A stretch of 37,215 bases of DNA from a virus (Duplodnaviria; Heunggongvirae; Uroviricota; Caudoviricetes). The DNA lies in IMG/VR virus record IMGVR_UViG_2541047928_000009, positions 1 to 37,215 of that record; one strand, given 5' to 3'. Position numbers and translations under genes: made by a program. Position 1 is the stretch's first letter, and each line of letters opens with the position of its first letter. Shown here one piece after another: positions 1-15,146 of this stretch. The notes beneath the pieces are model-generated. The model saw only the letters and a list, made by a program, of their open reading frames with translations. It was not told the origin of the DNA and searched no databases.

Positions 1-471
1 CTAATAAAACACCCAGTTTTCTGTTTCTTGGTTGTGTCCAAAGTTATATTCAATATCTGGTGTTGATGTATCAATATTCTTCATCCCATCAACAAGAGTT
101 GATACAACAGCCAAATCTTGTTTGATTCTCATTAAATGGTATTTCTTCCGGCGCAATAAACTCTCAATGGCAAGTTTCTTCGTTGGGAATGCAAAAGATC
201 TTTCTGCATTTTTTGCTACTTTCTTAATTGCATATCTATTTCTCCTTTGTTTCCATTCCTGTAACCACTGATTTGGTGCTGGTTTAAAATTAACAATCCA
301 ATGCGCAGGAACCAACCATGCATAATGCTCTGTCTGATGAAAAGCTATATATTGAAGTGCGAATATTTTTATCCCATCTTCTTCAACTGTCGCCTGGAAT
401 CTCCAGAAAACAGGCATTCCATCATGTTCAGTTTCTGATTCAGGAAAAGGTACGCTCCATGATTTTGTCAT
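1..471 (-). CDS. Hypothetical protein (156 aa) downstream of N in the leftward early operon; function unknown
   Basis: Complete ORF with ATG at 469-471 preceded by a GAGGTGA Shine-Dalgarno on the minus strand; stop at 1-3; AT-rich by eye; no family recognised. Confidence 0.55.
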   Translation of the reverse strand: MTKSWSVPFPESETEHDGMPVFWRFQATVEEDGIKIFALQYIAFHQTEHYAWLVPAHWIVNFKPAPNQWLQEWKQRRNRYAIKKVAKNAERSFAFPTKKLAIESLLRRKKYHLMRIKQDLAVVSTLVDGMKNIDTSTPDIEYNFGHNQETENWVFY

Positions 472-529
472 ATCTCACCTCAAATAAGTGGTTTGCTGCC
501 TAATTTCATTTTCTGGCGACCAACACAAG

Positions 530-802
530 TCATCTCGCCGTCAGTTGTTTTGATTTCCGGTATCCTGCTGCGTAAATGGCTACGTTTGGAAGACAAGTTG
601 AACCTTCATATTTTCTGGTCAACGTTGTCAGAGTTATAACTTCTGCTCTCATTGCTGGTTTGCGCTTGCATTGCAAGACCACTCGTGAAGGGGTTGGCCT
701 GTGTAGCTTGTCGGAGCTGATCGCCTCCTGACTTTGCAGATTTGCGCGACGAGCTCTACGGCGAGAAGCTGCGGTGCCTTTAAATTCTGTTTTTCTGGAC
801 AT
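530..802 (-). CDS. N: N-type transcription antiterminator (90 aa), phage 21 / P22 gene 24-like
   Basis: Arg-rich motif near the N-terminus (GTAASRRRARRANL) and C-terminus ...VAIYAAGYRKSKQLTAR resembling the P22 gene 24 protein end as I recall it; GGGAGGA RBS upstream of the internal ATG at 800-802; sits left of the nutL candidate. Confidence 0.7.
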   Translation of the reverse strand: MSRKTEFKGTAASRRRARRANLQSQEAISSDKLHRPTPSRVVLQCKRKPAMRAEVITLTTLTRKYEGSTCLPNVAIYAAGYRKSKQLTAR

Positions 803-900
803 GGATTCCTCCCGAATAAACTTTGGCGATGCAATCTCGAAGCTCCTCCTGAGACGGTTGCTTCGGCATTGCATCCCACAGCTTATGTGGTTGGGTGATC

Positions 901-946
901 TGGCTTTTCAGCCACGTAGTCGAGAGTCGACGTTGTTTAAAGAGCC
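901..946 (-). promoter_or_regulatory. Candidate nutL: boxA-like GCTCTTTAA (minus strand, plus 937-945) followed about 22 nt later by a boxB-like hairpin UGGCU-GAAA-AGCCA (plus 901-914)
   Basis: Read on the minus strand; same architecture and spacing as the nutR candidate at 3582-3627; located between the presumed pL and N. Confidence 0.5.
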
Positions 947-959
947 TGCCAGTCTGTTC

Positions 960-1200
960 CATTTGGCTTCCAGCGTCCTGCTGACGGTTAAATAGTACGA
1001 TATGTACTTTACAAGATCAATACAATTTGTTGTAAGTTGGCGTGGTTTTTTATAACGCTTTGTATTTAATAGTGTTGTTTTTTAGCGTGGATGTATTGCC
1101 TCGGCGATGTAAGGAGAGATCAGAATTGCGTGGTTTAGTGGGTTGCATCTATTTATTTTTCAATAAATATAATTGGTTATGTGTTTTTAGGTGGGCGAAC
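960..1200 (-). promoter_or_regulatory. Putative pL / OL operator-promoter region (AT-rich non-coding stretch upstream of nutL and N)
   Basis: Position relative to N and cI as in lambda; contains GTACTTT...AATACAA-type motifs that echo the OR region; exact operators not resolved. Confidence 0.3.
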
Positions 1201-1206
1201 GTGAGG

Positions 1207-1233
1207 CAAAGAAAACCCGGCGCTGAGGCCGGG
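1207..1233 (-). terminator. Rho-independent terminator closing the cI / orf185 / orf250 leftward transcript
   Basis: Hairpin CCCGGC-(6 nt loop)-GCCGGG at 1216-1233 followed on the minus strand by a TTTTCTTTG run; starts 5 nt past the stop of the 250 aa ORF. Confidence 0.6.
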
Positions 1234-1238
1234 TTGTA

Positions 1239-1991
1239 TTATGCTGCAAGTCTCTTAACCCAAGTCTCTCTTTTGGAGAATGGTAGAACTTGGCTTGATT
1301 CATGGAAGAGTAAGGAGAGTTGTTGCATTTGATCACCAATTGCTTCGCTGTCTATAACAACAAATCTGTTGTTATACTCCTCACTTGAAGCTTTAAGATC
1401 AATTAGTTTCCCAAGCAATGAGTAAGCACTATTCCAGCTTCCTCCGTGTTTCACGCTTGATGTAAAAACGTATTTAGGTATGTCGGTTTTTATTGTTACA
1501 GGGACGGTAATTTGATGTCCACTCAAGCCATATACGTTTTCACGAAGAGAAAGTGCGTCTCTAAGCTCTGTGTGATATAGATAATCAATAACCATACTTT
1601 CAAACTTTTCAGCTTGAACTGGCTGATACCAGTCTAACGACAAAGTTGATGCGAGTATACCAGCTCTAATTATGTTCGATGTAATCGCACCGACATCCTT
1701 TTCTGTTGCCCAAGCAATGATTTCTCCTCGAGCATTGAGTTCTGCGCCTTCTTTAAGCAGTAATTGTCGTATCTCATCAAGTCGTTTTTTGGTAAGCGAG
1801 ATCCCTCTTGCCTCCATATTCATTAAGGCATCGCATCTGTCACTAACTAAATACCTACCATTGACTTCACGGATAAAGGCACCGACATGCTCTCCATCAT
1901 CACAGTAAGTGAATGGACTGATAATTCTCAAGGTCTTGCCTATTGGATGGCATTCGAAACCTAGTTGTGAGATCACTGTTGAGCACATCAT
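1239..1991 (-). CDS. Hypothetical protein (250 aa), distal gene of a two-gene cassette in the rexAB-equivalent position; candidate superinfection-exclusion/defence component
   Basis: ATG at 1989-1991 overlaps the upstream stop (ATGA coupling); AT-rich by eye; ends just before the intrinsic terminator; no obvious transmembrane segment or recognised motif. Confidence 0.6.
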   Translation of the reverse strand: MMCSTVISQLGFECHPIGKTLRIISPFTYCDDGEHVGAFIREVNGRYLVSDRCDALMNMEARGISLTKKRLDEIRQLLLKEGAELNARGEIIAWATEKDVGAITSNIIRAGILASTLSLDWYQPVQAEKFESMVIDYLYHTELRDALSLRENVYGLSGHQITVPVTIKTDIPKYVFTSSVKHGGSWNSAYSLLGKLIDLKASSEEYNNRFVVIDSEAIGDQMQQLSLLFHESSQVLPFSKRETWVKRLAA

Positions 1992-2545
1992 ATTCCAAAC
2001 CCCATTTGCCCCGACTCATCTTCAAGCGGTAAAGGTATTCTCCCAGAGTAAGTTATGTTCAGATGTTTACAGAAGTAATTCCAATACCCTACCAGGTCAT
2101 CTGGGTTTATGTCATCTTCGATTGGAAACGCTATTCTATCACTATAGTATCCAGCTTCTTCATAGTATACATGGTAGTGAGCACCGTAAATGATATCTTG
2201 GTACTTCGGATGATCGACCTTGTAACTATTCGTGTGTTTGTCAAAGTGATAGGTATCTACCGCGAAAACCCTCTTGTTATGATAGAAAGCAATAATATTT
2301 ATTTTAGGGTAAGAAATCGGGTCATCAGGTTCTGAATCCTGATCTGGTTTCCATTTCAGTTCAAACTTTAGCCCTTGTATAGGTATACAATCCTCATCCA
2401 AGGGGATGATATGGGCTTGTAGCCACATATCAGAGCGACTTGGTTTCTGTTTCCATTTAACGCCAGAAAAGTTAACTATTTTTTTACAATAAAGTACTTT
2501 ATCAACTTCTACTTGGCTTGGCTGATAATCATCTATTTTTGCCAA
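1988..2545 (-). CDS. Hypothetical protein (185 aa, or about 146 aa from the internal ATG), proximal gene of the two-gene cassette downstream of cI
   Basis: ORF begins 40 bp after the cI stop; the first codon at 2543-2545 is TTG so the true start is uncertain; aromatic/acidic-rich, no obvious transmembrane segment; not RexA/RexB-like by length or composition. Confidence 0.5.
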   Translation of the reverse strand: MAKIDDYQPSQVEVDKVLYCKKIVNFSGVKWKQKPSRSDMWLQAHIIPLDEDCIPIQGLKFELKWKPDQDSEPDDPISYPKINIIAFYHNKRVFAVDTYHFDKHTNSYKVDHPKYQDIIYGAHYHVYYEEAGYYSDRIAFPIEDDINPDDLVGYWNYFCKHLNITYSGRIPLPLEDESGQMGFGI

Positions 2546-2584
2546 TGTTTACCGCCCTGTAAATTGTAGATAAAAGTGGTTTCA

Positions 2585-3244
2585 TCACCCAAACGTCTCT
2601 TCAGGCCATTGGCTGGCGATAACTTTCCCCACAACGGAACAACTCTCATTGCATGGGATCATTGGGTATTGTGGGTTTAGTGGCTGTAGAAACACCTGAC
2701 CGCTATCCCTGATCAGTTTCTTGAAGGTAAATTCATCACCACCAAGTCTGGCTATGCAGAAATCGCCGGGCTCAACAGCTTGCTCAGGGTCAACCAGAAT
2801 TAACATCCCGTCAGGAAAGCTGGGTTTGGAACCTGTTGGTGCGGTCATTGAGTTACCTTCAACCTCAAGCCAGAATGCAGAGTCACTGGCTTTTTTGGTT
2901 GTGCTTACCAATCTCTCCGCATCGCCTTTGGTAAAGGTTCTGAGTTCTGGAGAGAACATCCCAGCCTGAACATGAGAAAAAACAGGGTACTCATATTGTT
3001 TTTTAACTGGGGCCGATGAGTATTCGCCAACAGGTGAAAATGTCCCGTCGTGGTTGAATGATATGTTATCAATACCAAGGTATTTAAACACCACACCAAT
3101 ATCACTAAGAGATGGATGACGAGATCCGCGCAACCAGTGTCCAATCCCACCCTGCGTCATACCTAGCTCTTCGGCTAACTTCTCTTGAGTTATGCCGAGC
3201 TCTTTCATTCTGGATCTAGCCAGTTCATACCATTTCATTTTCAT
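2585..3244 (-). CDS. cI: CI prophage repressor (HTH plus LexA/S24-like autocleavage domain); the C-terminal domain reads as lambda cI, the N-terminal DNA-binding domain does not
   Basis: C-terminal ~140 aa ([26 protein letters not shown]...[12 protein letters not shown]) matches lambda cI as I recall it; N-terminus [11 protein letters not shown]...[14 protein letters not shown] is a different HTH; start taken at the ATG at 3242-3244, alternative ATG at 3236-3238. Confidence 0.85.
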
Positions 3245-3355
3245 GTCCTTATTATTACGCTCTGTACTGGAACCATCCATGCACAATGTGTATTTTTACT
3301 TGTATTCGCAAAGTACATATTGTATTTTTTTATTCGTGTTTACTATGGAGGGCAT
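3245..3355. promoter_or_regulatory. Divergent immunity control region (OR operators, pRM and pR) between cI and cro
   Basis: 111 bp AT-rich intergenic region between divergent repressor genes; contains near-palindromic TACTTGTATTCGCAAAGTAC and TGTATTTTT repeats; individual operators not resolved. Confidence 0.5.
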
Positions 3356-3571
3356 ATGAGCAACCTACGAAAATATCGAGAGTCACTGAATATCTCTCAA
3401 ACAACACTTGCTAAGGCAGTTGGATGCACACAGGGAGCTATCGGACATTGGGAATCTGGTCGTCGCTTCCCAGACCTTAAAACATGCCGTGCTCTTGTTG
3501 CGTGCCTAAACAAGTTAGGCGCAAAAGTCAGTCTTGATGACGTGTTCCCGCCGGAACACAAAGCCGCTTAA
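3356..3571 (+). CDS. cro: Cro-like HTH repressor (71 aa)
   Basis: ATG at 3356 with a GGAGGG RBS; HTH with recognition-helix motif TQGAIGHW closely resembling the cI motif TQGGIGHW; divergent from cI. Confidence 0.75.
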   Translation: MSNLRKYRESLNISQTTLAKAVGCTQGAIGHWESGRRFPDLKTCRALVACLNKLGAKVSLDDVFPPEHKAA

Positions 3572-3581
3572 TAAGCGGATC

Positions 3582-3627
3582 CGCTCTTTGTAACAACGGA
3601 CATTCGTCCTACGTCGCTGAAAAGCGA
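3582..3627 (+). promoter_or_regulatory. Candidate nutR: boxA-like CGCTCTTTG (3582-3590) and boxB-like hairpin UCGCU-GAAA-AGCGA (3614-3627)
   Basis: Immediately downstream of cro; boxA consensus-like; same hairpin form and spacing as the nutL candidate. Confidence 0.55.
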
Positions 3628-3712
3628 GTTCCAAGATATCTGACCAACTAAGGCCATATGCGTTTCCACGCATACCTTTCAACTAACTATTCACTATTGG
3701 AAATCTTAAGAA

Positions 3713-4012
3713 ATGGAAAGAACAAGTTACAGCAAACTATCACAGCGTGACGTTGATCGCGCAGAAACAGATTTACTTATCAATCTGTCAGCTATTACCC
3801 AGCGCGGTCTGGCAAAGATGATTGGCTGTCATGAATCGAAGATAAGCAGAACGGACTGGAGATTTATTGCTTCGGTCTTGTGTGCTTTCGGAATGGCATC
3901 AGACATCAGTCCGATTAGCAGGGCTTTTAAGTATGCGCTTGATGGACTCACCAATAAAAAACGCCCGGTGTGCAAGACCGAGCGTTCTGAACAAATCCAG
4001 ATGGAGTTCTGA
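3713..4012 (+). CDS. cII: CII transcriptional activator
   Basis: C-terminus [18 protein letters not shown] matches lambda cII as I recall it; the N-terminal part is divergent. Confidence 0.8.
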
Positions 4013-4034
4013 GGGAATTACTGGATCAATCCAC
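3954..4034 (-). ncRNA. Candidate oop-like antisense RNA overlapping the 3' end of cII
   Basis: Minus-strand hairpin CGCUCGG...CCGGGCG followed by UUUUUUAUU (plus 3954-3984), in the position of the lambda oop terminator; possible -10 CATAAT on the minus strand near plus 4042-4047; TSS not determined. Confidence 0.35.
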
Positions 4035-4044
4035 AGGAGTAATT

Positions 4045-4191
4045 ATGACAAAACAACTCAGTCCTTACCAGGACAAAATTCACAAACACATACTACGTGA
4101 TCGCTTCCTGTCCAGCTTCAAGCAGTCTGGTCGATTCCGGGCTGAGTTGGAAAAAGTGAAGCTGATGCAGAAGGAGAAAGGTCATGAGTAA
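4045..4191 (+). CDS. Small hypothetical ORF (48 aa) between cII and O
   Basis: ATG at 4045 with a CAGGAGT RBS; its stop overlaps the O start; too short for the supplied ORF track; may not be expressed. Confidence 0.3.
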
Positions 4192-5044
4192 TCTTGCAAC
4201 CGTAACACATTTAAGGCCTTCACAACGGCCTGTGGAGCGTCGTGTGGCAGAAGTTGAAGATGGTTATACCCGTCTTGCAAATGCCCTGTATGAAGAGCTT
4301 ATCGGCGCAGATTTAACAAAAAATCAGAGTAAGGTTGCCCACGCCATATGCCGTAAAACATACGGATACGGTAAAAAGATGGATCGCATCTCTGATAGTC
4401 AGTTAGCTCAAATTACCAGGCTGCCAAGACAGAAGGTAAACAAGGCCAAGAATGAGCTTATCGCGATGAAGGTAATCCTTCGCGAAGGCCAGCAAATCGG
4501 GCCTAACAAGAACATCGAGGAATGGCAAATCGAAGGGTGTCACTACTCTGGTGATAATGTCACTGCATTGGTGACAAAAAGTGTCACCAAAACGGTGACA
4601 GCGCTGTCACCAAAACAGGGACACACAAAAGAAACTATTACAAAAGAAAAAAGAAATAATAAAAACACTATGTCCGAAAGTGTTCGGACGGAGTGTGAAA
4701 AATCATCTGACCGTCACGAAGAAACCGACAAGGCATTCGAGGAAATATTCTGGTGTGCAGGCATGCGGAAAGCCGGGAAAAAAAACGCAGCTTCGGCATT
4801 CAGAACACAGTTCAGGGAATGGCGTAAAACTACCAGGGGTACGGCAAGCGAGTTTGCCACGATGCTGGCAGAAGACATCGCATGCAGGAATGGTAAGCAG
4901 TTCGGATTCGACAGGTTGTTACCATCGAGCTACCTGAACGGTCAGCGCTGGAACGACGAGAAGCCAGAAACTATTCAACCACAATCCAAACCATCATCCG
5001 CAATCACCGTATCGAAAACTGGCTACGTGTTTTTCGACAGGTGA
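4184..5044 (+). CDS. O: Replication initiation protein O (lambda O-like N-terminal iteron-binding domain)
   Basis: N-terminal region [14 protein letters not shown]...[33 protein letters not shown] resembles lambda O; ori iterons lie inside the gene. Confidence 0.8.
4536..4670. repeat. Origin of replication: three or four inverted-repeat iterons (GGTGACA...TGTCACC type) followed by an AT-rich segment, embedded in the O gene
   Basis: Directly visible: TGTCAC at 4538, GGTGATAATGTCAC at about 4550, GGTGACAAAAAGTGTCACC at about 4570-4588, GGTGACAGCGCTGTCACC at about 4594-4611, then an AT-rich stretch 4625-4670; same architecture as lambda ori. Confidence 0.7.
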
Positions 5045-5151
5045 ACCATGAAATCAAAAATCAAATCGCTACTGGTCGCTGGTTATAACCACGGCTGGTT
5101 AAGTATTTCGTTTGTCGATTTCTGGTTTAAAAATCTCAATCTGAGGGAATC

Positions 5152-7032
5152 ATGAGGCCAAGTGAACTTAGCGACCTGCTTTGGGCGCAGGTTGACAGTG
5201 TGGCTCCGCACCTGTTGCCAAATGGCAAGAAAGAGGGGCATGAGTGGGTTGCCGGTAACATCAACGGTGACAAGGGAAACAGCCTTAAGGTCAACCTTAG
5301 CGGCAAGAAAAAATGGGCTGATTTCGCTGAGGGAGACGGCGGTGACATGCTTGATTTGTGGATGGCATGTCGTGGAATTAACCTGCATCAGGCTATGCAG
5401 GAAGCGAAAGCATTTCTCGGTATCAAGGATGACGATCACCATTTCGATGCCAGACGTGAGAAGAAATTCTCCAGACCTGATCGCAAGAAAATCGCCCGCT
5501 ACGTTACCAGAACAGAATCCCATCTTGAGTACCTGCAATCGCGTGGCATATCGCCAGAAATCGTAAAGCGCTACGAGGTTGTCAGCGGCAAGGTGTGGAA
5601 TGGAGAGCGGGAACTGGATGCTCTGGTGATTCCGTACAAACGCGATGGTGAGTTGTTGCAGGTCAAGCGAATCAGCACTGAGCGCCCGGACGGGAAGAAA
5701 GTCATTATGGCAGAAGGTGATTGCGAACCTTGCCTGTTCGGATGGCAGGCTCTGGACGCTGGCGTGAGGGCGGTTGTGCTTTGCGAAGGCGAAATTGATT
5801 GTATGAGCTATGCGCAATACGGCATCTCGGCGTTATCCGTGCCGTTTGGTGGCGGGAAAGGCGCTAAGCAACAGTGGATTGAGTTTGAGTATCACAACCT
5901 CGACAGGTTTGAGGAAATATTCATCTCGATGGACGTTGATGATGTTGGTCGTGAAGCCGCAAGGGAAATCGCAAGCCGACTCGGTGAACATCGTTGCCGT
6001 CTTGTTACTCTGCCGTACAAAGACATCAACGAATGCCTGATGAACGGTGTTACCGAGGATGAAATCTGGCAGTACATCGGCACGGCATCCTACTTCGATC
6101 CTGAAGAACTCTACAGCGCGCGAGAGTTTTACCAGGACACTATCAACGCTTTCTACGGCAAGCAGCAGTATCTGTTTAATCCACCGTGGGAATCTCTGGC
6201 AGATAAATTCCAGTTCCGTGAGGCAGAGTTGACGCTGGTCAATGGGGTGAACGGTCACGGAAAAACGGAGGTTGTCGGGCATATGGCACTTGAGGCAATG
6301 CGTCAGGGTGTGAAGACGTGCATCGCGTCACTTGAGCTGAAGCCTGGTATTCTCCTTAAGCGCCTTACCCGTCAGGCGACGTGCTGCAAGATGCCGCCAG
6401 TGCTGGAAATTGACTCTGCATTTAAATTTTATGACGAAAGACTTTGGGTGTTTGGCCTGACCGGAACGGCGAAAGCCGACAGGCTGATCGAAATATTCGA
6501 CTACGCTCGCCGCCGATACGGGATCCAGTTATTCATCATCGACAGCCTGATGAAATGTGGCATAGGCGACGATGACTATAACGGGCAGAAGGCGTTTGTT
6601 GACTCGATTTGCGACTTCAAAAACAAAACAAACTCCCACGTCATTCTCGTTACTCACTCGCGAAAAGGAGACAGCGAAGAAAAACCAACCGGGAAAATGG
6701 ACGTAAAAGGCTCTGGAGCGATAACAGACCTGACAGACAACCTTTTCATCATCTGGCGTAACAAGGCTCGCGAGAGAGCGTTACAGAGAGTTCAGAGTGG
6801 TGAAAAGATGTCAGAGAAGGACGAACAGCTACTGGCGTCTCCTGCATCTGTTTTGATGCTTGAAAAACAACGTAACGGCGAAGGTTGGGAAGGTGGTGTC
6901 CCGTTGTTCCTTGACGAGCAATCGCACCAGTTCCTGCAACTTGAATCAGGATCGCCATATAGCTACATCGCCAATATGCCGAAATCGGAATATGACGAGG
7001 CGTGGCGACAGGAAAACGTGACGGAGTATTAA
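5152..7032 (+). CDS. Bifunctional DNA primase/helicase (Toprim primase domain plus RecA-fold DnaB/RepA-like ATPase)
   Basis: Toprim motifs VLCEGEIDCMS and ISMDVDDVG; Walker A GVNGHGKT and Walker B LFIIDSL; occupies the position of lambda P. Confidence 0.75.
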   Translation: MRPSELSDLLWAQVDSVAPHLLPNGKKEGHEWVAGNINGDKGNSLKVNLSGKKKWADFAEGDGGDMLDLWMACRGINLHQAMQEAKAFLGIKDDDHHFDARREKKFSRPDRKKIARYVTRTESHLEYLQSRGISPEIVKRYEVVSGKVWNGERELDALVIPYKRDGELLQVKRISTERPDGKKVIMAEGDCEPCLFGWQALDAGVRAVVLCEGEIDCMSYAQYGISALSVPFGGGKGAKQQWIEFEYHNLDRFEEIFISMDVDDVGREAAREIASRLGEHRCRLVTLPYKDINECLMNGVTEDEIWQYIGTASYFDPEELYSAREFYQDTINAFYGKQQYLFNPPWESLADKFQFREAELTLVNGVNGHGKTEVVGHMALEAMRQGVKTCIASLELKPGILLKRLTRQATCCKMPPVLEIDSAFKFYDERLWVFGLTGTAKADRLIEIFDYARRRYGIQLFIIDSLMKCGIGDDDYNGQKAFVDSICDFKNKTNSHVILVTHSRKGDSEEKPTGKMDVKGSGAITDLTDNLFIIWRNKARERALQRVQSGEKMSEKDEQLLASPASVLMLEKQRNGEGWEGGVPLFLDEQSHQFLQLESGSPYSYIANMPKSEYDEAWRQENVTEY

Positions 7033-14134: not shown

Positions 14135-14485
14135 CCATTACAAAGCCTATCTACGGGTGGGTTTGATAATGGCTTATACCCTGCACGGGATAACTTAACT
14201 GATATCCCTTTTAACGGATAAACGGAGCCAACAATGGCAGAGAATGTCGGCATTATGGCAGTGAAATTTGGATAAATCGGGGATTAGAAAGATAGAGGCG
14301 AGCCGGTCAGGTAGAAATGAATCAGGCTCAAAGTGAAGCGGAAAAGGTCTGTGGCACAAACTGATGCTGCCATAATTACAGCCTGATGACTTGTGGAATG
14401 AAACATGTTGAACCTCCTTAATTGATGTGATTCGAGTGAGGAAGGCATTCTGTCCTTCTATAGTGTCCAGTAAATCAAACAGGAA

Positions 14486-14509
14486 GCTTGTCTCACGTGT
14501 GAGACAAGC
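14486..14509. promoter_or_regulatory. Perfect 24 bp palindrome GCTTGTCTCACGTGTGAGACAAGC (CACGTG core), candidate protein-binding site or structure
   Basis: Directly visible; 11 bp arms around a GT centre; flanked by further inverted repeats at 14520-14552 (GAGTTGTA/TACAACTC and AACTCTT/AAGAGTT). Confidence 0.5.
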
Positions 14510-14628
14510 CTCTCCATTAGCGAGTTGTATTGATTACAACTCTTCAAAGAGTTCATTACTGGGTAGATGAAAATAGTTTCACGACGAATGGAGGAGACTA
14601 TGTCGGTGGCTTCTTCATTGGAGTACAT

Positions 14629-15000
14629 ATGCCCCCACGAACCCCAAAAACCTGCCGTGTTCGCGGCTACCGCAATACCACCACAGATCCGTCAGGCTAT
14701 TGCAAAAGCCACAAAAGCGAAGGCTGGAAGCAATACAAGCCGGGCCAGTCCTGTCATCAGCGCGGTTATGGTTCGCGAGGTTGTCCCTCATGCTCGCCAG
14801 TCCTGTGCGGGGGTGGAAGAAACAGGACACTCACACAGATTCTTGTGGGTCGATGCTATTCCTTTCTGGATTATCCCGATGCCATTCATGCAAGGGCTGT
14901 ATAAGACGTTCGTCATGGCTGTCAGGCTGACGGGTCCTCCCGGTGGGGTGGCCTGCCACGGGGCGGGAGCGTCGCGGAAAAAGGCTAGTTTTTGCATTTT
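14629..15000 (+). pseudogene. Decayed HNH endonuclease-like remnant upstream of the terminase genes
   Basis: Frame 1 encodes MPPRTPKTCRVRGYRNTTTDPSGYCKSHKSEGWKQYKPGQS.HQRGYGSRG, resembling the N-terminus of small terminase-associated HNH proteins; downstream HNH-like fragments (VDAIPF for VDHIIP; SRCHSCKG) appear in other frames and zinc/catalytic positions look substituted; from memory, not searched. Confidence 0.4.
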
Positions 15001-15146
15001 TATCGGCCACCATCATCTTTGCACCTTATTGATTATTAATGGTTATTTGTTTTTTGCATGTCGAATTGAGTGTTTTTTGTTCGACATCGAACGCGTTTTC
15101 TTAAAGTTGTTCGCACGATGCATGTTTAAAGCTCTCCGGAGGAAAT

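Follow-up and report, generated by a model that had tools for sequence, protein, structure and literature searches.

A repressor-linked two-gene prophage cassette with a DUF1828-DUF1829 protein as a candidate phage-defence system

The cI-linked slot of temperate phages has been described as a hotspot of mosaic diversity; lambda carries rexAB there and BTP1 carries bstA (PMC8585504). RexAB is the textbook case of abortive infection from the cI-N slot, with RexB described as an ion channel, and BstA, a defence protein of the Salmonella prophage BTP1, is encoded immediately 3' of the repressor gene in an arrangement conserved across diverse Gram-negative prophages (PMC8585504). Two further systems are relevant to the locus described here. 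PDC-M24 (cassette CAS_00098, FAM_00129>>FAM_00065; Payne et al. 2024, bioRxiv 10.1101/2024.01.29.577857) is a PADLOC candidate system defined on genes located inside BREX, DISARM and type I restriction-modification loci, and DS-6, or HipAD, is an experimentally validated system of the DefensePredictor paper, for whose DS-6B component antitoxin-like binding to both its partner and DNA has been proposed. The pair of genes considered below, named A and B, occupies the repressor-linked slot of a lambda-like E. coli phage genome, and the window is the whole stretch of DNA analysed, 37,215 nucleotides in length. Its relevant features are the following.

2585-3286, minus strand: cI-type prophage repressor (HTH_3 + Peptidase_S24), first gene of the presumed operon
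2546-2584, minus strand: cI-A spacer of 39 nt, containing the ribosome-binding site of A (sequence reading)
1988-2545, minus strand: gene A, an open reading frame of 185 aa with a TTG start
1239-1991, minus strand: gene B, an open reading frame of 250 aa with an ATG start
1988-1991, minus strand: ATGA, the 4-nt overlap of the A stop and the B start, for translational coupling (read in the sequence)
1204-1235, minus strand: intrinsic terminator after B (terminator scan and folding)
530-802, minus strand: antiterminator N (PF25694 N_peptide, E 8e-32)

Architecture of the locus

The gene preceding A is recognised as a repressor by its Peptidase_S24 (E 1.3e-28) and HTH_3 (E 2.1e-10) scores, its start being placed at 3280 in public records, and both it and N are annotated as cI and N in PhiR57_1. 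N itself lies outside the cassette and marks the far edge of the variable cI-N slot. A Shine-Dalgarno-like box, AGGGCGG, is found 5-11 nt upstream of the TTG codon of A, within a spacer that folds no better than its shuffles (z +1.3) and in which a terminator scan found no terminator; being unstructured, it would pose no block to read-through from cI into A. A search for an internal promoter of A returned one weak consensus match, with fewer scan sites than in shuffled sequences, and no RNA families were detected in positions 1-4500. At the other end, the terminator begins 3 nt past the B stop with a stem of 8 pairs, 6 of them G-C, spanning 1235-1214 and continuing into a T-run to ~1204, and its folding energy of -17 kcal/mol (z -4.2) was equalled by 0 of 200 shuffles. 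It presumably closes the cI-A-B transcript and would shield transcription of the cassette from the pL/N region. Judging from this geometry, co-transcription of A and B with cI in the lysogen would fit the architecture; the tables of the Nissle 1917 transcriptome paper do not allow EcN_1291 and EcN_1292 to be resolved as A and B.

The cassette also stands apart in composition, with a GC content of 39.6%, where cI has 46.3% and the window as a whole 50.9%, and no other 1307-bp segment within the 37 kb reaches so low a value (median 51.6%). The sequence-only reading had described two genes of 185 and 250 aa on the cI strand, a short gap after the cI stop, ATGA coupling, a terminator within 5 nt of B and a position equivalent to that of rexA-rexB, and each of these features is present in the locus as listed above; the AT-richness it had pointed out proved stronger than claimed.

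The two proteins

Protein A is soluble, acidic and beta-rich, and its highest 19-residue Kyte-Doolittle mean (0.45) lies below membrane-helix level. It belongs to phrog_2017 and appears to be at most a distant relative of DUF6978 (PF22398), which it matches with 22 bits, under the gathering threshold of 29.6, and which is matched by 8 of 27 members of the A family at E up to 0.01. Structure prediction yielded a confident model for which the fold search found no PDB match. In the family alignment W31, R92, N106, H123 and H125 are invariant, with D97 and H104 nearly so, and a conserved cluster is made up of R92, D97, H104, N106 and H123-x-H125. Conservation and predicted secondary structure suggest that the His/Asn/His-x-His residues of this cluster, located on three neighbouring strands, form a probable metal-binding site. 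Two other segments are distinctive, a hypervariable loop at residues 71-79 (entropy 2.43 vs a mean of 1.08), and a C-terminal tail at residues 173-181 that is conserved despite low model confidence there and a predicted unstructured state. Readings of the His motifs as cupin, histidine-triad, 2H-phosphoesterase or HNH were dropped because the fold search gave none of these common folds. The A profile also matched SAKe6AC-LB, a designed Kelch propeller (E 1.8e-10), but this is an artefact: its six identical repeats add ~6.5 bits apiece, and taken singly their E-values are 62-250. No DNA-binding antitoxin domain is recognisable in A.

Protein B, also acidic and soluble (highest 19-residue Kyte-Doolittle mean 1.19, below membrane-helix level), matches DUF1828 (PF08861) with 33.5 bits, above the gathering cut-off of 22, as do 30 of 30 B homologues. 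Its N-terminal DUF1828 domain is predicted to adopt a type-III-secretion-chaperone/YbjN-like fold, the best structural match being 8q8o, a DUF2170 protein described as a biofilm-operon regulator. The C-terminal domain is predicted to adopt a restriction-endonuclease-like alpha/beta fold of the PD-(D/E)xK type, and the independent HH-based table of DefensePredictor assigns DUF1829 (PDDEXK clan) to B with a probability of 98.8. A deep alignment of this domain shows none of the canonical D...(D/E)xK residues, strand 2 starting without an acidic residue and K181 not being conserved, so that nuclease activity of B is doubtful. Positions that are conserved include S157, G158, the nearly invariant H159, W186, D198, R209 and D/E214, of which only H159, D198, R209 and D/E214 are deeply conserved polar residues, and conservation along B as a whole peaks in the N-domain and not in the nuclease-like domain. 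A PDB sequence search with A, B and their profiles produced nothing meaningful.

Spread of the pair and its links to predicted defence

A stands directly upstream of B with the 4-nt overlap at 88 of 88 related loci, and in 87 of these a cI-type repressor is found upstream on the same strand. Clustering of the upstream repressors gives 40 groups at 90% identity and 22 at 60%, which amounts to at least 22 families. Among the hosts are Enterobacterales, Aeromonas and Pseudomonas; the arrangement recurs in Aeromonas prophages, in a Pseudomonas D3-like phage and in metagenomic relatives of 21-25% identity, and the pair is seen in metagenomes from soil and water. Inspection of nine loci revealed a non-ATG start on the first gene in eight and, 3' of B in all nine, a hairpin and T-run equivalent to the terminator. 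A and B are real genes under purifying selection, with dN/dS values (from one unsaturated pair) of 0.12 and 0.06, respectively, and A diverges faster than B, as seen both in its higher dN/dS and in its lower identity across loci. Sibling phages with the same cI lack the cassette and carry other cargo in the slot, and a Stx1a phage carries the identical cassette behind cI and N genes that both differ from those here; the pair is accessory, shifting among many immunity types but keeping its repressor-linked slot. Of 5426 complete E. coli genomes 250 (~5%) carry the cassette, among them those of Nissle 1917, of ATCC 11775, the type strain, and of many extraintestinal pathogenic strains, and no B homologue was found in the plasmid collection. 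As for neighbouring genes, the cargo near relatives includes defence candidates (PDC-S43 at locus L004 and PDC-M26A at L106), some distant relatives adjoin restriction-like genes, and one adjoins a resolvase gene.

Both proteins show a relation to PDC-M24. B matches PDC-M24B over its full length (E 4.7e-10), and A matches PDC-M24A partially, over profile positions 79-134 of 148 (E 4.8e-4). These matches are weak, the gene order is shared, and most of the distant A relatives have no PDC-M24A match at all; the weakness of the matches and these unmatched relatives place the pair in a sister clade of PDC-M24 rather than among its core members. The genomic setting differs as well, the present locus and 87 of the 88 relatives lying in prophage repressor operons and not in BREX, DISARM or type I loci. 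In addition, DefensePredictor (Tables S5 and S10) names these very proteins, WP_001062368.1 and WP_000968518.1, each as a "predicted novel defense gene", B scoring log-odds of 5.64 and A 4.90. Neither accession has a match in the tested set, Table S6, of which two of three parts were covered, and within these 12 units with log-odds of 4-8 were validated vs 15 that were not (~44%). Two published computational screens flag the pair as probable defence, and both predictions are probabilistic. A literature search for DUF1828, DUF6978, PDC-M24 or PhiR phages found no functional paper, and no experimental test of the cassette or of PDC-M24 was found in the literature.

These results separate what holds in the sequence-only reading from what does not. 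Its placement of the pair in an accessory, moron-type slot agrees with the same-cI phages bearing other cargo and with the same cassette behind different cI and N genes, and its distinction from Rex is upheld by the lack, in scans at E up to 1, of any Pfam or PADLOC match of A or B to RexA (PF15969) or RexB, as well as by the absence of membrane segments, which it had also anticipated. A and B likewise show no match to BstA. It had further regarded the proteins as belonging to no recognisable family and the system as undescribed, and here it has to be revised: B is a DUF1828 + DUF1829 protein and A a phrog_2017 member distantly akin to DUF6978, both genes weakly match PDC-M24, and the exact proteins already appear in the DefensePredictor tables.

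Proposed function and comparison with known systems

The cassette is a credible defence candidate, presumed to be expressed in the lysogen, and its function is still a prediction. It is best viewed as a prophage moron transcribed with cI and most likely guarding the lysogen against other phages, a reading given a probability of about 0.5; a defence function of some kind, taken more broadly, is rather more probable than that. Protection would come about by abortive infection or by exclusion. A and B may form a complex, in which the conserved C-terminal tail of A could dock on B at its chaperone-like DUF1828 domain, and one partner would keep its counterpart inactive as long as no superinfecting phage upsets the complex. 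A, with its new fold and probable metal-binding site, would be the effector and B the sensor or regulator, with a DUF1829 domain that, without the canonical catalytic residues, may bind DNA and not cut it, as proposed for DS-6B. This division of labour is tentative. Equally speculative is the more complete scheme of a new abortive-infection mechanism, whereby a metal-dependent A would be held through its tail by B, B would survey DNA, and a phage component would bring about release.

Nearly as likely as A being the effector is the reversed assignment, in which B would be a non-canonical PD-(D/E)xK nuclease effector that uses its chaperone-like N-domain to sense a phage protein, and A a specificity or sensor subunit, or an inhibitor. 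The faster evolution of A (dN/dS 0.12 vs 0.06) would suit a sensor rather than an effector, and its hypervariable loop 71-79 is in keeping with this, but the clearer catalytic-looking cluster sits in A and not in B. Similarly, PD-(D/E)xK domains occur in 13 validated DefensePredictor systems, and a sensor-plus-nuclease precedent exists in Can2 and Card1, yet B is missing the canonical catalytic residues and its conservation is highest in the N-domain instead of the nuclease-like domain.

A role in lysogenic conversion or the phage lifecycle, such as an influence on host physiology or virulence or the tuning of induction or of the lysis-lysogeny decision, with no defence involved, is unlikely. 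Many lysogen-expressed morons have non-defence roles, the N-domain of B finds its best match in the biofilm-operon regulator 8q8o, and the cassette is frequent among extraintestinal pathogenic and B2-type strains, Nissle 1917 also having it. However, soil and water metagenomes and phages of Pseudomonas and Aeromonas have the pair too, which speaks against a role in virulence tied to one host; some relatives adjoin restriction-like genes, and two independent defence predictors flag the pair. Least probable is a toxin-antitoxin or addiction module stabilising the prophage or modulating host growth without phage protection, since the small, overlapping, coupled genes that are always inherited together, the weak non-ATG start on the first gene at 8 of 9 loci, the resolvase beside one relative and the antitoxin-like reading of the validated DUF1829 partner DS-6B are offset by the failure of A or B to match any known toxin or antitoxin family, by the want of a recognisable DNA-binding antitoxin domain in A, and by repressor-operon linkage, the PDC-M24 relation and DefensePredictor scores that favour defence. 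Defence systems include many toxin-antitoxin modules, and to that extent this alternative overlaps with the preferred reading, a cassette guarding the lysogen.

If defensive, the cassette would be the third unrelated system in the repressor-linked slot of temperate phages, after RexAB and BstA, and would provide a first function for the DUF1828-DUF1829 architecture and for the A family, whose fold is unmatched among solved structures. Since it is carried by ~5% of complete E. coli genomes, including those of Nissle and pathogens, a defence role would bear on phage therapy and on the phage resistance of Nissle, and the cassette could be the "other factor" in the resistance of Nissle 1917 to lambdoid phages. 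It is easy to test, being 1.3 kb long and present in the culturable phages ev207, ev017 and PhiR57_1, and phages PhiR11_1 and 2G7b, with the same cI but different cargo, offer natural isogenic comparators.

Compared with known systems, the pair shares with lambda RexAB the cI-N slot, two genes on the cI strand, presumed co-transcription with cI and a terminator before pL. The sequences are nevertheless unrelated and the gene sizes different, RexB is a membrane protein whereas A and B have no membrane segments, and the folds differ too, that of B being chaperone-like plus restriction-endonuclease-like and that of A lacking a PDB match. BstA likewise is a repressor-linked prophage gene, with the repressor promoter presumed for both, but it consists of one protein and is accompanied by a DNA-based self-immunity element (aba), in contrast to the two-gene A-B. 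PDC-M24, like A-B a candidate system, has the same order of a small protein followed by a ~250-aa DUF1828 protein, although its genes are embedded in restriction or BREX loci and the A-B clade in temperate-phage repressor operons. The CRISPR ancillary nucleases Can2 and Card1 combine a nuclease with a CARF sensor that binds cyclic oligoadenylates; they keep the catalytic motif that is absent from B, which has a type-III-chaperone-like domain in place of CARF, so that the likeness is structural and not one of family membership. Finally, DS-6 (HipAD) is also a two-gene E. coli system in which DS-6B carries DUF1829 like the C-terminus of B, but there the partner is a HipA-like kinase and the N-domain DUF3037, where the present cassette has A, with its unmatched fold, and the DUF1828 domain of B.

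Architecture of the cassette

The window is lambdoid phage DNA, identical (100%) over 1100-3400 to phages ev207, ev017, PhiR57_1 and PhiR63_2, and the region behind its cI gene is laid out as follows.

530-802: N (PF25694, E 8e-32)
1235-1214, T-run to ~1204: intrinsic terminator (stem 1235-1214), 3 nt past B
1239-1991, minus strand: gene B, 250 aa, ATG start
A/B junction, minus strand: ATGA overlap
1988-2545, minus strand: gene A, 185 aa, TTG start
cI-A gap: 39 nt
2585-3286, upstream of A: cI (HTH_3 + Peptidase_S24)

Since N lies at 530-802, the cassette occupies the cI-N interval, the rexA-rexB slot to which the sequence-only reading had assigned it. That reading's two ORFs behind cI were recovered, as were the coupling ATGA overlap (by direct reading of the sequence) and the terminator close behind B, which folds at -17 kcal/mol (z -4.2) and was equalled by 0 of 200 shuffles. 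The cI-A gap folds no better than its shuffles (z +1.3), and Rfam families gave no matches across window 1-4500. The suspected AT-richness was borne out by windowed GC, the cassette (39.6%; cI has 46.3% and the whole window 50.9%) being lower than any other 1307-bp window in a scan of the entire stretch. Both proteins are acidic, and neither carries a membrane segment, as had been claimed.

Just past N, the minus strand of window 1-471 encodes a likewise very AT-rich 156-aa ORF (36.5% GC, no Pfam match) that also follows N in the Stx1a phage Stx1_121427 (L013 5198-5668). At this site PhiR57_1 and E. coli Nissle 1917 instead have sieB, encoded on the other strand; the ORF may be a second accessory gene. 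The replication module at 4184-7032 encodes proteins of 286 aa and 626 aa, the latter primase/helicase-like, and differs from the O/P module found in PhiR57_1 and Nissle (compared with locus L001), although the cI-A-B region is identical, a further instance of mosaicism near the immunity region.

Conservation, mobility and distribution

A and B are real genes and belong together as one unit. Homologues with identities of 37-84% are spread over Salmonella, Klebsiella, Yersinia, Providencia, Xenorhabdus, Photorhabdus, Serratia, Pectobacterium, Edwardsiella, Aeromonas and others, and in all 88 related loci (80 IMG/VR viral contigs, seven genome contigs, one deposited phage) B is immediately preceded by an A-family ORF overlapping it by 4 nt. 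Among nine loci inspected by eye, all have a G+C-rich hairpin and T-run downstream of B, and eight start A with GTG or TTG. For one unsaturated pair of loci, dN/dS was 0.12 (A) and 0.06 (B). Among 1.84 billion representative proteins searched with A, only 32 clusters matched at E <=0.001, which marks the A family as rare; in its distant members (21-25% identity) too, a DUF1828 protein comes next, in most cases overlapping in the same way. The enterobacterial-type A-B junction (B 82% identical) in a 518-bp contig labelled Actinomadura rugatobispora (NZ_JBHSON010000334.1) is probably assembly contamination.

Of the 88 loci, 87 have a cI-like repressor ORF upstream on the same strand, at a distance of up to 100 nt in 45 cases and of 101-600 nt in 40; clustering these repressors gives 40 groups at 90% identity, 22 at 60%. 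Precomputed Pfam marks independently give the order HTH_3 + Peptidase_S24, A, B in Aeromonas contigs, and in a Pseudomonas D3-like phage the order is CI-like repressor, 216-aa gene, an A-like ORF lacking annotation (profile comparison probability 99.2%, E 5.5e-20) and a DUF1828 protein with an ATGA overlap. In the deposited record of Pseudomonas phage VB_PaD_phPA-G (L012 3420-4004; PP083311.1 ~14449-15033), a clear A-family protein (profile probability 99.2%) is encoded in an unannotated 670-bp gap and overlaps the DUF1828 gene by ATGA.

The cassette is accessory: unrelated genes fill the slot in the same-cI phages PhiR11_1, 2G7b and Stx1/Stx2 phages, and in Stx1_121427 an identical cassette stands behind a cI and an N that both differ. 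Of 5426 complete E. coli genomes, 250 carry it, in every case on the chromosome and at >=99% identity; they include ATCC 11775 and Nissle 1917, and in Nissle it lies in the lambdoid prophage adjoining icd. According to the BstA paper (PMC8585504), mosaic diversity is concentrated in the cI-N region, which rexAB and bstA both occupy. In an Izhakiella prophage (L004 5044-5385) a DUF3024 gene between repressor and A-B matches the PADLOC candidate PDC-S43 (E 1.4e-38), and the slot can therefore stack several candidate defence genes. Downstream of a metagenomic A-B relative (L106 1554-5549; L108) come a PDC-M26A-like protein of 548 aa and a DUF2357 + PDDEXK_7 protein of 780 aa, apparently a restriction-like neighbour that does not lie in a prophage.

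Predicted folds and possible mechanism

Across A relatives of 21-70% identity, W31, R92, N106, H123, H125, F158 and P173 are invariant and K22, D97, H104, G121 and Q180 nearly so. The polar residues of this set sit on three neighbouring strands of the predicted structure and form a probable metal or active site. Loop 71-79 is hypervariable, and the C-terminal tail 173-181 is conserved despite low model confidence. The predicted fold has no counterpart among solved structures. A motif at ~82-106 (RVYAxD..HxN) resembles a Kelch-blade hairpin; the match to 8pjr, a designed six-fold repeat protein (E 1.8e-10), is misleading because its score merely sums over six identical repeats.

The earlier view that the proteins fit no recognised family fails for B, whose DUF1828 match exceeds the Pfam threshold. 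Its predicted structure (pLDDT 82.9) has two domains, the C-terminal one resembling restriction-endonuclease-fold proteins (Can2 10.3, PspGI 9.8, BstEII 9.8, NgoMIV 9.6) as well as AF1548, Card1-like VC1899 and Bax1. Independently, the HH-based table of DefensePredictor assigns DUF1829 (PDDEXK clan) to exactly this protein, residues 155-241, with probability 98.8. A deep alignment shows no conservation of the canonical D...(D/E)xK residues, those kept being S157, G158, H159 (nearly invariant), W186, D198, R209 and D/E214; conservation peaks in N-domain stretches. C3 and C14 are nearly invariant throughout the deep family, including the Pseudomonas homologue, and a metal or redox role is possible.

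With architecture, obligatory pairing, mobility and folds established, the cassette is best read as a lysogen-expressed two-protein defence or exclusion module. A and B would form a complex, the tail of A docking on B through the latter's chaperone-like domain, and an infecting phage would free the effector. We slightly prefer A as effector and B as sensor or regulator, since the cluster in A is the clearer catalytic-looking one and the nuclease-like domain of B lacks canonical residues. Swapping the two roles fits nearly as well, given that A is the faster-evolving protein. The rivals to this defence or exclusion module are that the pair serves purely for addiction, or that it acts in lysogenic conversion with no connection to defence.

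Nissle 1917 and known or predicted systems

A 2018 study of Nissle 1917 phage resistance inferred that some further factor acts besides the repressor (PMC5987069), for which the cassette is one speculative candidate. In its Table S2, EcN_1293 is given as "cI repressor protein" and the gene cloned as "pr", EcN_1294, as "Phage repressor"; judged by position, pr may be a cro-like gene adjoining cI, not cI itself. EcN_1291 and EcN_1292, both "hypothetical" and missing from SE15, IAI1 and MG1655, may be the cassette (L014, NZ_CP022686.1 4789150-4791482).

The cassette is not RexAB: Pfam and PADLOC scans gave no match to those families and hydropathy gave no membrane segment, in agreement with the proposal that neither protein is RexA or RexB. 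What occupies the rexAB slot is a genuine candidate defence system, conserved and mobile, as first interpreted, but not an undescribed one, two published computational screens having already flagged it. B matches PDC-M24B of PADLOC over its full length (E 4.7e-10), and 30 of 30 homologues of B also hit PDC-M24B; A matches PDC-M24A weakly (E 4.8e-4), and up to 11 of 27 A-family members hit PDC-M24A models (6, 3 and 2 on three models, overlap possible). PDC-M24 (cassette CAS_00098, FAM_00129>>FAM_00065, count 153) comes from a set of 145 candidates deduced from genes that lie inside BREX, DISARM and type I restriction loci (Payne et al. 2024), and no record of its testing was found. As the relatives identified in this analysis score only moderately against these models, the prophage family is treated as a sister clade.

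DefensePredictor lists B (WP_000968518.1, log-odds 5.64) and A (WP_001062368.1, 4.90) as one transcription unit, "Predicted novel defense gene" (Tables S5, S10); neither accession gave a hit in Table S6 (tested units). By our own count, parts 1 and 2 of 3 of that table hold 12 validated and 15 non-validated units at log-odds 4-8; over all 94 units, the paper's validation rate was 45%. The same paper validated DS-6 (HipAD), whose second protein carries DUF1829 and was proposed to bind both its kinase partner and DNA in the manner of an antitoxin. Of the two screens, then, PDC-M24 flags a related family and DefensePredictor these exact proteins.
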